Positions 6,762 through 14,139 of a DNA stretch of 64,000 nucleotides are shown here, one piece after another. The stretch lies in the sequence record PZ445523.1; one strand, given 5' to 3'. Origin of the DNA: a phage. Every line of letters starts with the position of its first letter. Position 1 is the stretch's first letter. Under the pieces are notes generated by a model. It searched no databases and was not told the DNA's origin. It worked only from the letters and a program-made list of their open reading frames with translations. The position numbers were made by a program, and so were the translations under genes.

Positions 6762-9026
6762 TCATAATTTACAGGATGAACAATCTTCAGCTTTTGGAGT
6801 TTCTATTTCATAATCATCAGTACCAGAACCATCGCGGGTATTATGATAATAGAAATTTTTTCCGCCAAAATACCAAAAATACAAAAGGTCATCAATCATT
6901 ATTGACATTGGAACCTTTCCTTTTGGAAAAATCTGCGGGTCATAGTATGTATTCGTTGAAGCTGATTGACACACCCATTTCAGCATAATAGCTACCTGCG
7001 TAAGATAAGGTTTATTACCTTTCTTAGCTAATTTCCACGTATAATCATATAGGTCTATGTTATGCTCAATATTGGGCACGACTTGATTAAAGGAGCCCTC
7101 TTTTGATTCTTTAACAGAGACTGGTCCACGTGGAGGCTCGATACCGTTTGTACTGTTAGAAACTTGGGAAGATGACTCACATGGCATAAGTGCTGATAAT
7201 GTGCTATTACGGATGCCAAAGAGCTTAAGGTCTTCCCGCAGCGACGACCAGTCACAAACGTATTTTGGAGCTGCGATTTGGTCAATCTTTTTATTGTACC
7301 AGTCGATAGGTAATTCGCCTCGAGACCAACGAGTGTCTGAATAATATTCGCAAGGTCCTTTTTCTTTGGCGAGCTTAATGGATGCTTTAATGAGTCCATA
7401 CTGTAATCTCTCAAATAGTTCATGTGTTAAATCGTTAGCATCTTCATAAGAAGCAAAGTTACTTGCCAGCCAAGCTGCATAGTTGGTAACACCTACACCG
7501 AGGTTACGACGCTTTTTGGCTTTTTCTGCTTCAGGAACCGGATATCCTTGGTAATCCAAAAGATTATCAAGAGCACGAACTTGGACTTCTGCCAATTCAT
7601 TAATTTTATCTTGGTCTTGCCAATCAAAGTTATCCAGCACAAATGCTGATAACGTGCACAATCCAATTTCAGCATCAGGGCTATTCACATCATTTGTTGG
7701 AATAGCAATTTCACAGCACAAGTTACTCTGACGAATAGGTGCCTTTTCACGAATAAACGGAGTGTAGTTATTCGTATTATCAATGAACTGCACATAAATC
7801 CTTGCTGTTCCTGAACGTTCAGTCATGAGCAATTCAAATAGTTCACGAGCTTTAATACGCTTTTTACGAATATTAGGGTCTTTTTCTGCTGCTTCGTATA
7901 ATTCACGGAAACGGTCTTGGTCTTTAAAATAAGAATAATAAAGCTCTCCACCCATTTCATGTGGACTGAACAAAGTAATGTAATCGTTCTTTCCAAAACG
8001 TTCCATCATTAGGTCATTCAGTTGAACACCATAATCCATATGACGGATACGGTTTTCTTCTACACCTTTGTTATTTTTCAAAACGAGAAGATTTTCAACT
8101 TCCAAATGCCAAATAGGATAATAAGCAGTTGCAGCGCCGCCACGAATTCCGCCCTGTGAACATGATTTAACAGCAGTCTGAAAATGTTTCCAAAAAGGAA
8201 TAACCCCAGTATGGCGTACTTCACCCATGCCAATCTTAGAACCTTCGGCACGAATCATACCAACGTTAATACCAATTCCAGCGCGTTTAGAGATATATTC
8301 AACAATCGAAGCGGAAGCCTTATTGATAGACTTCAGCGAATCACCTGCCTCAATAACAACACATGAACTAAACTGTCGAGTCGGAGTACGACAACCAGCC
8401 ATAATAGGAGTTGGTAATGAAATCTGTCGAGTAGATACTGCTTCATAAAAACTAATAACATGTTTTAATCTATCAACAGGTTCATCTTGATGCAATGCCA
8501 TTCCAATAGTCATAAATGCAAACTGCGGAGTTTCATAAATTTGACCAGTGGTTTTATCTTTAACTAGATATTTTTCTTTTAATTGCATCGCCCCGGAATA
8601 AGTAAATTCCATATCCCGTTCGTGCTTAATTTTTGATTCTAAAAATGTAATTTCTTCTGCTGAATATTTTGACAATAATTCAGGGTCATATTTACCTTCA
8701 TTTACACAATAAGAAATATGGTCAATAAATGAACGTGGTTCATACTGTCCATAAACATGCTTACGAAGAGCAAACATTAAACAGCGTGCAGCTACATATT
8801 GATAATCAGGCTCTTCAACTGAAATAGAATTCGCAGCAGCCTTAATGACAATAGTCTGAATATCATCAGTTGTCATTCCATCACGGAGATAAGATTTAAT
8901 ATTTTCATATAATTCATAAGGATCTACTGATGTTCCTTCAGCTGCCCAAGATAAAACTTTAATAATTTTTTGCGGGTCAAAGCTCTGAGAAACACCACTA
9001 CTTTTGATAACATTAATTAATTGCAT
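6762..9026 (-). CDS. nrdA: ribonucleotide reductase large subunit
   Basis: 754 aa, same length as T4 NrdA; class I RNR alpha features. Confidence 0.95.
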   Translation of the reverse strand: MQLINVIKSSGVSQSFDPQKIIKVLSWAAEGTSVDPYELYENIKSYLRDGMTTDDIQTIVIKAAANSISVEEPDYQYVAARCLMFALRKHVYGQYEPRSFIDHISYCVNEGKYDPELLSKYSAEEITFLESKIKHERDMEFTYSGAMQLKEKYLVKDKTTGQIYETPQFAFMTIGMALHQDEPVDRLKHVISFYEAVSTRQISLPTPIMAGCRTPTRQFSSCVVIEAGDSLKSINKASASIVEYISKRAGIGINVGMIRAEGSKIGMGEVRHTGVIPFWKHFQTAVKSCSQGGIRGGAATAYYPIWHLEVENLLVLKNNKGVEENRIRHMDYGVQLNDLMMERFGKNDYITLFSPHEMGGELYYSYFKDQDRFRELYEAAEKDPNIRKKRIKARELFELLMTERSGTARIYVQFIDNTNNYTPFIREKAPIRQSNLCCEIAIPTNDVNSPDAEIGLCTLSAFVLDNFDWQDQDKINELAEVQVRALDNLLDYQGYPVPEAEKAKKRRNLGVGVTNYAAWLASNFASYEDANDLTHELFERLQYGLIKASIKLAKEKGPCEYYSDTRWSRGELPIDWYNKKIDQIAAPKYVCDWSSLREDLKLFGIRNSTLSALMPCESSSQVSNSTNGIEPPRGPVSVKESKEGSFNQVVPNIEHNIDLYDYTWKLAKKGNKPYLTQVAIMLKWVCQSASTNTYYDPQIFPKGKVPMSIMIDDLLYFWYFGGKNFYYHNTRDGSGTDDYEIETPKAEDCSSCKL

Positions 9027-9343
9027 AAGTCCTCAACTTGAAAATCGTCTTTAAACAATCGGTTAACTATATGAGCTATTATATCACCATGACACGGCTT
9101 TGGTTTACATGTGCATCCTAGCCTCATTCCACGTAAAGGCTCTAAATGTGCTTTAGTTATTTCTCCGGATTTAATTCGACGTATAAAATCTTTTTTGAAT
9201 AATTCAATGGCAGCCTCCCGGCTGCCAGCATCTTTACCGACGTAATTTCCCCAAAATGTACCGCGGTGAATATTAACATCAAAGTCGGATTTATATTTAT
9301 TCACTACCTGGCATAGACGGCCCGCGTGGTGATAATTCGTCAT
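9017..9343 (-). CDS. hypothetical protein (nrdA.1 position), Cys/His motif C-x-C-x-P-x-P-C-H-G-D
   Basis: 108 aa; conserved-looking GNYVG ... [14 protein letters not shown] segment. Confidence 0.5.
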
Positions 9344-9572
9344 ATTGTTTTTCCGTTAAAACAGTAATATCATAGTAACAATCAGAAGAAGTTTTAACTG
9401 TAGAAATTTTATTATCAAAATACTCACGAGTCATTTTATGAGTATAATATTTTTTGCCATAAATGATAATAGGCTGATTTGGTCCTGGAACTTCTAGCTC
9501 ACTTGGATTAGGAAGTGTAAAAAGAACTACACCAGAAGTATCTTTAAATCGTAAAATCATATATCCTCGCAA
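9297..9572 (-). CDS. hypothetical protein (nrdA.2 position)
   Basis: 91 aa ORF between td and nrdA. Confidence 0.45.
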
Positions 9573-9580
9573 TAATAAAA

Positions 9581-10441
9581 TTACACCGCCATCTTTCCTT
9601 TAATTGGCGGGTGAGATACATAGTTGTTAAGAACAAAATTATGCGGCTTTGCGAATTGACTCAACCAAAATACCTGCGATTCTGTGTTCCATTCATCAAA
9701 TTCATCTGGAAATTTTAATTGTAATTCGCATAAATCCATAGGTTCACGACGCAAAATTTCTTTACATTGTTCTACGTGATTCATATAGATATGAGTATTA
9801 CCACCAGAAAATATCAAATCTCCAGGAATAAGATTACACATCTTAGCTACAATATGAACTAACGTAGCATATGATGCAATATTAAATGGAAGACCGAGGA
9901 AAACATCTACCGAACGTTGATACCACTGCAAATCCAAATAGCCGTTACGCACATTAAACTGATAGAACATATGACAAGGCGGTAATGCCATCTGCTTGAG
10001 TTCAGCTGGATTCCATGCAGAAACAATTTGACGCCTATCATTTGGCAATTTTTTAATACGATCAACAACTTCTATAATTTGGTCTACACCGCCAAAATCG
10101 CGCCATTGTTTTCCATAAATTGGACCAAGTTCACCGCTATGGTATCCTAAATCTTTTGCTTGATTTTCGTAATTTTCATCCCAGACTGTTTTGCCTTGAA
10201 TTAATGAATCATGTTGAATTAATCGTAAATCATTGACATTTGTGCTTCCCGATAAAAACCATATTAGCTCAGCAATGCAAGCTTTCCAGGCGAGCTTCTT
10301 AGTTGTTACTGCAGGAAAACCTTTAGTTAAATCCCAGCGTAATTTAGTACCGAACAAAGCAATTGTTCCTGTGCCCGTTCTGTCATCGGTTTCATAGCCA
10401 TTTTCAAAAATGTCTTTAATTAAATCTTGGTATTGTTTCAT
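9581..10441 (-). CDS. td: thymidylate synthase, intronless
   Basis: 286 aa uninterrupted ORF; active-site PCH ([11 protein letters not shown]). Confidence 0.95.
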
Positions 10442-10486
10442 TTAGTACCTTATATAAATTATAATACATTTTATGAAGCTAAATAA

Positions 10487-10846
10487 TCAATACGGTTTAG
10501 CATCAAATTTTCTCTCAATTTCAGGCGTGAAATATAATTCTTTACCGCGTTTGGAAAAGCGACCAATAATATGATAATTATTCTCATCAAACGTAATATT
10601 ACCAATATCCATAGCTTTCAACCAAATATCGATATTTCTATCCAGCTTTATGTCAAAATTCCAATACGGAGAACTATTACCGAAAATACTGCAAGCAGAT
10701 TCAGTGAAACAACTGCTATAAATCTTGTCTTTAGGAACTACTAATTGATAGACACCTTTAATAAACTGAGGACCCTGCCATTTAGGTTGTTTCACGTCTT
10801 TTTCTAATAGAATAGGGTAATAATTAAAATTCATATTTTCCGCCAC
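10487..10846 (-). CDS. hypothetical protein inserted between frd and td
   Basis: 119 aa frame (first codon GTG; first ATG at 10834 gives 115 aa); T4 frd and td abut directly. Confidence 0.5.
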   Translation of the reverse strand: MAENMNFNYYPILLEKDVKQPKWQGPQFIKGVYQLVVPKDKIYSSCFTESACSIFGNSSPYWNFDIKLDRNIDIWLKAMDIGNITFDENNYHIIGRFSKRGKELYFTPEIERKFDAKPY

Positions 10847-10854
10847 GCGTTATT

Positions 10855-11677
<823 letters not shown>

Positions 11678-11693
<16 letters not shown>

Positions 11694-12037
11694 TGAAAAG
11701 AGTCATGAGCATATCCGCTAGCGTCAATCATTTTAACTAAAGTTACCATTCCTCTGTTAACTGCTTGCGCGATTTCATCAAAAACTTCGTCACTATCATC
11801 GTAAAGATCATTAAAAAGTTCTAACACGTTCTTCTGAACTTTTAATTTACGGCCGACAATTTCGCCTACAGTAAATTCGTTTCCGCCAAATCCAGCGTAA
11901 AATGTAATTACACCCATTAACTGGCTTTCACGGGAATCTATGTCGTGTGATAAATTAATAAAAGCCGTCCCAGGCGCGGTTTTAAGTTGGCAACGAATTT
12001 TTACTTGGGTAATTCCAGTTATATGAATGTTAGACAT
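11678..12037 (-). CDS. hypothetical protein (frd.2 position)
   Basis: 119 aa ORF. Confidence 0.45.
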
Positions 12038-12047
12038 AATATTTTCC

Positions 12048-12290
12048 TCAGACAGACTTTTTCACAATTTTCCAATCAGCTTTAAACTGCTCGACGTCAG
12101 AATGGTAAATCCAGAATCCTGCGCTTTCTCCGTCTTCATAAAGAGGACATCCATCGCATTCATCTTCCCATCCCATATCACGTAAAAGATGTTCAGCTTT
12201 TTCAACAAGTTCAGAATCTTTACCGATGATATTAAAATACCATTTACCTCTAACTTCCGAATCTTTAATGCTCTGACGTTGTAATCTCAT
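12048..12290 (-). CDS. hypothetical protein (frd.3 position)
   Basis: 80 aa ORF with CDGC pair; early promoter element about 12395-12430 upstream. Confidence 0.45.
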   Translation of the reverse strand: MRLQRQSIKDSEVRGKWYFNIIGKDSELVEKAEHLLRDMGWEDECDGCPLYEDGESAGFWIYHSDVEQFKADWKIVKKSV

Positions 12291-13233: not shown

Positions 13234-14139
13234 TTAAAGGTCATTCAAAAGGTCATCCAGGTCCGTGTCATCAGCACTAGATGAACTGCCAGAGCTTGAG
13301 CTCATAAAATCATCTTCAGTTTTTGTATTGAAGTCATCAACATTGAATGCATCCAAATCATCAGCAACTTTATCAGCTTTCTTAGCAGCAGTTGCAGCGG
13401 CACCGCCCATCACAGCAGTTCCCATAACTTGACTGAACTTAGTGCTCAGTTCTTCAAACGATTTGAATTTATCTTTAGAAGTCATTTCAGAAAGGTCAAC
13501 CATTTGTTCGAACAGTTCTTTCTGGAAAGATTCATCGTCAATGTTTGGAATCGCAGATTGATTTAGGAATTTAGATTCATCGTAGTTACTAAATCCAGAA
13601 ACTTGTTTAACTTTCAGTACAAAGTTAGCACCTTCCCACGGACAAGTTACATCAACTGGAGTTTCACCCATTTCAACATCAACCGCAATCATCGCGTTGA
13701 TTTTATCCCAGATTTTCTTACCGAAACGATATTTAAATACTTTACCTTCATTTTCTGGAGCAGCTGGGTCTTTTACAACAAGAATATTAGCCCAGTAAGA
13801 AGTTTTACGTTTAACAAGATTGTACTCTTTATTGTCAGTGTTGTACAGATCATTTTTACTGATGTATTGACATACTGGGCAAGAATCGTAATCACCATGG
13901 GTAGATGAACATGTTTCAATATACCATTTACCATTTTTCTTGAAACCGTGATTTACAAGAATTGCGAATGGTGCTTGTTCATCATTTTTAGACGGAAGAA
14001 AACGAATTACTGCTTGACCGTTACCCGCATTATCGAGTTTCAGTTTCCACTCGCCTTTATCTTCAGAAGAAAAACCTTTATTGCCATTCAGTTTAGCCAT
14101 TTGTGCAGCAAGTTCAGCAGTAGATTTACGTTTAAACAT
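13234..14139 (-). CDS. 32: single-stranded DNA-binding protein gp32
   Basis: 301 aa; zinc subdomain H..C..C..C ([15 protein letters not shown]); acidic C-terminal tail. Confidence 0.95.

Follow-up and report, generated by a model that had tools for sequence, protein, structure and literature searches.

td.1, a small conserved gene between frd and td in T-even phages, is very probably an ancestral resident of the interval that phage T4 has lost

An open reading frame (ORF) between the genes for dihydrofolate reductase (DHFR; frd) and thymidylate synthase (TS; td) of a T-even phage raises the question of what this ORF is, what its product may do, and whether it was gained by its carriers or lost by phage T4. 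The DNA analysed was a stretch of 64,000 nt from phage record PZ445523.1, hereafter the window, which represents a mosaic T-even (Tequatrovirus) genome with approximately 96% identity to the nearest records. All genes of the frd-td region are located on the minus strand. According to the ORF list, frd (10855-11436, -) lies upstream and td (9581-10441, -; intronless, 286 aa) lies downstream, and positions 10442-10854 (413 bp) are exactly the interval between them.

The preliminary description of this DNA had reported an ORF of 115-119 aa in the interval, and its presence was confirmed by the ORF list, a protein family match and the substitution pattern. The coding sequence at 10487-10834 (-) comprises 348 bp, that is, 115 aa plus the stop codon, while an alternative in-frame GTG at 10846 extends it to 119 aa (10487-10846, -). 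The ATG at 10834 was considered the likelier start because it is annotated in T2, T6 and Mosigvirus and is preceded at 5 nt by a Shine-Dalgarno (SD)-like GGCGG (10840-10844, -). The stretch at this SD, GGCGGAAAATATG, is conserved across T2, T6 and Mosigvirus, and the 348-bp coding sequence is annotated identically in all three. Spacers of 20 nt on the frd side and 45 nt on the td side flank the gene. On the opposite strand, 10442-10854 contained only ORFs of 33 and 57 aa, neither of which had any support.

The encoded protein matched phrog_1928 with E=1.6e-35, residues 8-115 aligning with profile positions 2-125 of 126. Both this near-full-length match and the location between the DHFR and TS genes on the same strand assign the ORF to the td.1 family. 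The ORF was thus already known as a hypothetical gene, td.1 / RB32ORF229c / phrog_1928; it is annotated as "hypothetical protein RB32ORF229c" and named td.1 in the T6 record AY262134.2. The copies of T2, T6, RB14, RB32 and other phages have 97-100% amino acid identity, equal length and the same frd-td site, and were therefore regarded as the same gene. The window protein differs from those of T2 and T6 by a single residue, V14 in place of A. Compared with the T2 copy, 12 synonymous differences and 1 non-synonymous difference were counted, and compared with the Mosigvirus copy, 32 synonymous and 10 non-synonymous (dS 0.83, dN 0.036). The resulting dN/dS of 0.04 indicates a functional protein-coding gene under strong purifying selection. 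Judging by the family match, the homologues in 580 phage records and this ratio, the ORF at 10487-10834 is a genuine gene.

The distribution of the gene among T-even phages was determined by searching the 413-bp segment against phage records. At least 80% of the segment was covered in 363 records, with identities of at least 95% in most of the matching records, and the carriers include T2, T6, RB3, RB14, RB27, RB32 and RB68. When the T4 frd-td junction was used as the query, 515 records matched; td.1 is thus present in approximately 363 of approximately 515 T-even records (~70%). In a sample of 60 of these records, drawn evenly, the interval showed three states within one genus. About two thirds of the sample contained an insert of ~416 bp corresponding to td.1, about one fifth, including Sf21 and fPS-2, contained an insert of ~206 bp with an unrelated 68-aa ORF, and 5 of the 60 showed the uninterrupted T4-type junction. 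The 68-aa ORF, found in Shigella phage Sf21 at L003:604-810 (-) and also at L004:1304-1510, belongs to phrog_9550 and gave no Pfam match. It replaces td.1 at ≥90% identity in ~135 T-even records, overlapping both frd and td. Its relatives occur in unrelated Phapecoctavirus genomes (43% identity) and in Klebsiella T4-like phages (79%), apparently at other genome positions; accordingly, it is probably a roaming small gene, unlike td.1.

The family extends far beyond the T-even phages. When 1.84 billion representative proteins were searched exhaustively with HMMER, 22 clusters were returned at E≤0.001. Two of the weakest matches, P0021 and P0023, were longer and might have been domain fusions; both were rejected as repeat or retroelement artefacts. 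Each of the 19 other matches with retrieved sequences was a stand-alone protein of 95-116 aa. Further named relatives were obtained when family alignments were used in word-indexed searches; they come from Enterobacter phage CC31, Edwardsiella phages PEi26 and PEi20, Kosakonia phage Kc304, Citrobacter phage CkP1, and Salmonella phages SEA1 and Melville. Loci were then opened in CC31, a related metagenome contig, PEi26, two Kosakonia phage (Kc304-type) genomes, SEA1, Melville, a JGI contig, Enterobacter phage ZX14 and Mosigvirus Shf125875. In every one, the td.1 relative was located directly between the DHFR (PF00186) and TS (PF00303) genes on the same strand. Relatives at 25-45% identity thus hold the DHFR-TS interval in Mosigvirus and in CC31-, PEi26-, Kc304-, S16- and Klebsiella-type phages. 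With tblastn, the family was detected in 580 phage records, each of which had it at a single place, and the matches in Klebsiella, Salmonella, Erwinia and Citrobacter phages overlapped features annotated as dihydrofolate reductase and/or thymidylate synthase. On this distribution, the td.1 family appears to be restricted to T4-like phages.

Outside Tequatrovirus and Mosigvirus, the interval usually contains two genes in tandem, X and Y. The pairs of the CC31, PEi26, Kc304, S16/Melville-type and Klebsiella phages (e.g., CC31p239) belong to the same family as td.1 (E down to 1e-30), occupy the same interval on the same strand, and share the motifs LLExDxxQKxW, HGxY, GN and IGRFxKxG...F. They differ from td.1 in their 25-45% identity and in consisting of two paralogues. 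Paralogue Y (116-124 aa; phrog_1928 match, E=9e-39) has the same motifs and an insert of ~19 residues after the conserved W. Moreover, the X and Y genes overlap frd and td, whereas td.1 of the window is separated from them by its two spacers. As the four genes overlap by 1-23 nt at their stop and start codons in these genera, the arrangement has the signature of translational coupling; td.1-family genes appear, from these overlaps, to be translationally coupled to frd and td in most genera. In Mosigvirus Shf125875, a 2-nt difference (TATAAAAATGAAATAG against TATAAATGAAATAAC) abolishes the T-even frd stop codon; the resulting Frd (L010:1142-1759, -) is 11 residues longer, and its gene overlaps td.1 by 11 nt.

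The sequence of the Td.1 protein gave few indications of what it does. The preliminary description had recognised no motif, and this was upheld by Pfam, NCBIfam and PADLOC scans of the protein, none of which gave a match; a Pfam scan of 39 relatives was likewise negative. Searches of PDB sequences, whether with Td.1 alone or with the family profile, produced chance-level matches only. The residues Q16, W19, G27, Y29, G91, F93, K95, G97 and F102 are invariant or nearly so, while ~77-79% of the sequences in the 39-member alignment retain N79 and R92. The stretch G91-R-F-x-K-x-G97 is conserved, and the H of the HGxY motif is replaced by K in T-even copies. As a family, these proteins are mildly basic (median pI 8.6) and aromatic-rich, and neither a catalytic motif nor a candidate catalytic constellation was found among the conserved residues.

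The structure was predicted with AlphaFold2 on the 39-sequence alignment, a run on 4 sequences having been too poor for use (pLDDT 60). The model had a mean pLDDT of 84.6 and a pTM of 0.78, with predicted strands at residues 7-12, 27-34, 38-40, 48-50, 62-64, 80-82, 86-96 and 99-104 and a sole helix at 68-76. Td.1 is predicted to be a soluble, mildly basic, mostly beta protein of ~13 kDa with the order beta1-beta2-beta3-helix-beta4-beta5. The model resembles OB-fold domains (RPA, Teb1, PriB, SSB, S1) only weakly and has no significant solved relative, as the Foldseek search against PDB returned nothing better than E 0.68. The OB fold proper is a closed beta-barrel of five strands, with a helix between strands 3 and 4 and a beta2-beta3/L12/L45 face that binds ssDNA, RNA or oligosaccharide. 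Matches in BFVD were confined to uncharacterised proteins of other T4-like phages, among them phages of Pectobacterium, Serratia, Erwinia and Aeromonas.

A literature search on RB32ORF229c, phrog_1928, CC31p239, Shfl2p237, td.1 and frd-td yielded no functional information. Td.1 is a small protein, both constrained and dispensable, that is expressed from the frd-td transcription unit. It would share its transcript with DHFR and TS, be made in step with both, and most likely act by binding a partner, a protein or a single-stranded nucleic acid, rather than by catalysis; the partner would most plausibly be connected with the thymidylate/dNTP-precursor machinery or with its expression. As Td.1 would be co-produced with the two enzymes from one transcript, the role considered most likely was that of an accessory or regulatory factor, itself dispensable, in the phage thymidylate/dNTP-precursor module. 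Our best guess, offered with low confidence, is that Td.1 is a small binding protein without enzymatic activity, expressed together with DHFR and TS; the specific link to the work of the two enzymes is tentative and rather doubtful.

The strongest competing reading is that Td.1 is a host-takeover or anti-defence protein that inhibits a host protein, its adjacency to frd and td being merely historical. Such a role would agree with a gene that is dispensable, being absent from T4 and from phages ECO07P3 and FL18, at a locus with three states in one genus, and with a small protein that has no enzyme motif and a predicted fold without a PDB counterpart; the adjoining small ORFs likewise have no assigned function. 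However, counter-defence genes usually diversify and move, whereas td.1 shows a dN/dS of 0.04 and, at 25-45% identity, is stably syntenic as a single copy from one genus to the next. In addition, no PADLOC-related or named anti-defence match was obtained, although PADLOC holds defence rather than counter-defence proteins. A host-directed role is thus possible, but on the unlikely side.

A further proposal, that Td.1 is an OB-fold-like protein binding single-stranded DNA or RNA and acting on the translation or stability of the frd-td mRNA or at replication forks, would fit the OB-like topology of the model and the conserved aromatic and basic residues. It was judged unlikely as a specific mechanism, and this estimate overlaps with that for the accessory role linked to DHFR and TS. 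In a more far-reaching form of the accessory reading, which we regard as speculative and improbable as it stands, Td.1, with its paralogue, would be the third component of a DHFR-X-(Y)-TS module of enterobacterial T4-like phages. Its fold would be a new or highly diverged OB-like one, and it would physically couple or regulate DHFR and TS, for example as an adaptor within the dNTP-synthetase complex or as an RNA-binding operon regulator.

The difference between the window and T4 is located precisely at the junction. The T4 frd-td overlap at ATGA was reportedly described by Purohit and Mathews in 1984. The annotation of T4 (NC_000866), with frd at 145109-145690 and the td start at 145112, shows this 4-bp overlap with nothing in between. 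The preliminary description was therefore right that frd and td abut in T4; an ORF at the same site, which would have spoken against its account, was looked for in this record and is absent. The genes flanking the junction are the same in both phages, and the T4 junction bases TATAAATGAAACAATACC are the outer halves of two repeats found in the window, while the 417 bp that hold td.1 and a promoter-like spacer in the window are missing from T4.

On the coding strand, the end of frd reads GTATATAAATGAAATAACGCG and the start of td reads GGTACTAAATGAAACAATACC. The left copy of the direct repeat, TAAATGAAATAA (10850-10861, -), comprises the frd stop codon and a vestigial ATG-AAA-TAA, and the right copy, TAAATGAAACAA (10433-10444, -), spans the td start codon. 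The copies share the 9-mer TAAATGAAA (10853-10861 and 10436-10444), 417 bp apart; if one mismatch is allowed, they match over 12 nt. The T4 sequence, GTATATAAATGAAACAATACC, corresponds to exactly one repeat copy, flanked on the left as the first copy is and on the right as the second is. The 9-mer is a gene-boundary motif, a stop codon followed by ATG-AAA, of which the window contains 9 copies where 4.2 would be expected; this AT-rich DNA has many comparable short repeats (5 families in 701 bp). Mosigvirus already has both copies of the direct repeat.

These observations decide the polarity of the change. That a cassette was recently inserted into a tight, T4-like junction, for example by a mobile element duplicating its target, might be read from the direct repeat of 9-12 bp bracketing the 417-bp segment and from the absence of this segment in T4. 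However, the repeat does not represent a target-site duplication: the 9-mer is a frequent boundary motif, and both copies pre-exist in Mosigvirus. No terminal inverted repeats surround the segment, the sole inverted pair near its ends being 9 nt long and AT-only, and no mobility gene, neither a transposase nor an endonuclease, lies within it, so an inserted cassette was not recognised by either kind of mark. Moreover, td.1 is found in the same interval of distant genera and in ~70% of T-even records. The flanking repeats that the preliminary description had suggested looking for do exist, but they are no sign of insertion. Its picture of an extra gene wedged between frd and td has to be reversed, since td.1 is the majority state, T2, T6 and several RB phages carry it at the junction, and it occupies the same site in at least six other T4-like lineages. 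A recent insertion is thus very improbable.

Instead, the repeat evidence and the occurrence of td.1 in the same interval of distant genera indicate that the td.1-bearing state is ancestral. In T4 and a few other phages, td.1 would then have been lost by a 417-bp deletion between the two copies of TAAATGAAA, fusing frd and td into the ATGA overlap. On this sequence comparison, the T4 state is best read as derived, the product of a microhomology-mediated deletion that was either recurrent or spread by recombination. The identity of td.1 and this account, in which an ancestral resident of the frd-td interval was lost by T4, were together considered very probably correct.

The T4-type ATGA junction, with exactly one repeat copy, was also found in Tequatrovirus ECO07P3 (L017) and phage FL18 (L018), where it sits on visibly different td sequences. 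In both phages, td is annotated as a 552-bp first exon, so an intron is present. These junctions point to a recurrent deletion at the 9-bp repeat or to their spread by co-conversion during intron homing. A general association of the tight junction with the td intron was rejected because T6 has both the intron and td.1. The td gene of the window is continuous, having neither the group I intron nor I-TevI, both of which are present in T4 and T6.

The td.1-td spacer (10442-10486, -) is 45 nt long and promoter-like. The preliminary description had noted an AT-rich region upstream of td with TATTATAAT-like elements, and these are present in the sequence; a promoter role for them is putative. The spacer contains TGTATTATAAT and carries a MotA-box-like TTTAGCTTCA (10483-10474, -), TATAAT (10463-10458, -) 10 nt after it, and the td SD AAGG (10451-10448, -). 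The MotA-box consensus is (a/t)(a/t)(a/t)TGCTTtA at 12±1 bp from the -10 element (PMC2988021); TTTAGCTTCA has 6 of the 7 core bases, and its spacing of 10 to TATAAT is short compared with this, a MotA-type middle promoter being putative here. A sigma-70-like TTGATT-18-TATTAT was also flagged in the region, where a consensus scan gave 16 sites against 12.0±3.7 in shuffled sequences, that is, no excess. Within the spacer, an Rfam scan found no match and RNA folding no significant structure (z = -0.33). The distance from the td.1 stop codon to the td ATG is 45 nt in T-even phages compared with 13 nt in Mosigvirus, whose spacer has no MotA-box-like/TATAAT element. The element may represent a promoter specific for td that T-even phages gained and that T4 lost again with its deletion.

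Database labels of td.1 were also evaluated. Some GenBank records name it "putative homing endonuclease", "putative glucose-1-phosphate adenylyltransferase", "putative dihydrofolate reductase" or "reductase", and none of these names agreed with the domain and structure searches; the dihydrofolate reductase and glucose-1-phosphate adenylyltransferase labels were rejected, as Pfam and NCBIfam gave no PF00186 or nucleotidyl-transferase match. The label of a free-standing homing endonuclease, used in several BASEL-collection records (AugustSocin, TadeuszReichstein, WilhelmHis and others) and conceivable in a region rich in real ones (I-TevI, mobE and segG in T4), can be dismissed on sequence and structure as having almost no chance of being right, because 39 family members contain no GIY-YIG, HNH, LAGLIDADG or other nuclease domain, 115 aa is far below the size of Seg/Mob proteins, the model has no nuclease-like structural match (I-MsoI: Foldseek E ~2, TM 0.18), and the gene is not sporadic but stable and syntenic, with one copy per genome at one site and an absence explained by repeat-mediated deletion.

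The other side of frd also differs from T4. Between frd and frd.1, the window contains an RB32ORF231c-like ORF of phrog_3183 (11436-11693, -) and an RB51ORF237-like DUF7247 ORF of phrog_3566 (11678-12037, -), both absent from T4. Since DUF7247 is also found upstream of the DHFR gene in CC31 and PEi26, T4 has apparently deleted genes on both sides of frd. Farther along, the ORF list gives an ORF at 12048-12290 (-) and gene 32 at 13234-14139 (-). On the side of nrdA, two small ORFs located between nrdA and td, one nrdA.1-like (9017-9343, -) and one nrdA.2-like (9297-9572, -), share 47 nt. Where related phages were opened, a gene for a DUF4326 protein occupied the nrdA.1 position; the window copy matched phrog_464 in a scan of PHROGs only.

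Taken as a whole, the combination of an ancestral td.1 lost by T4 and a binding role linked to DHFR and TS is the explanation we narrowly favour. As a genome feature td.1 is ordinary, being annotated in hundreds of T-even genomes, and the difference of T4 would amount to a small deletion. T4 is, however, unrepresentative both at the frd-td junction and on the other side of frd, and the textbook ATGA overlap would be a derived state found in only a few percent of relatives. The gene was probably left unstudied because T4 deleted it, and if the reading as a DHFR-X-(Y)-TS module were true, the module would have been overlooked for the same reason. With a predicted fold that is confident yet has no solved relative, td.1 is among the better conserved small proteins of T4-like phages without an assigned function, and it would be co-translated with two well-studied enzymes.
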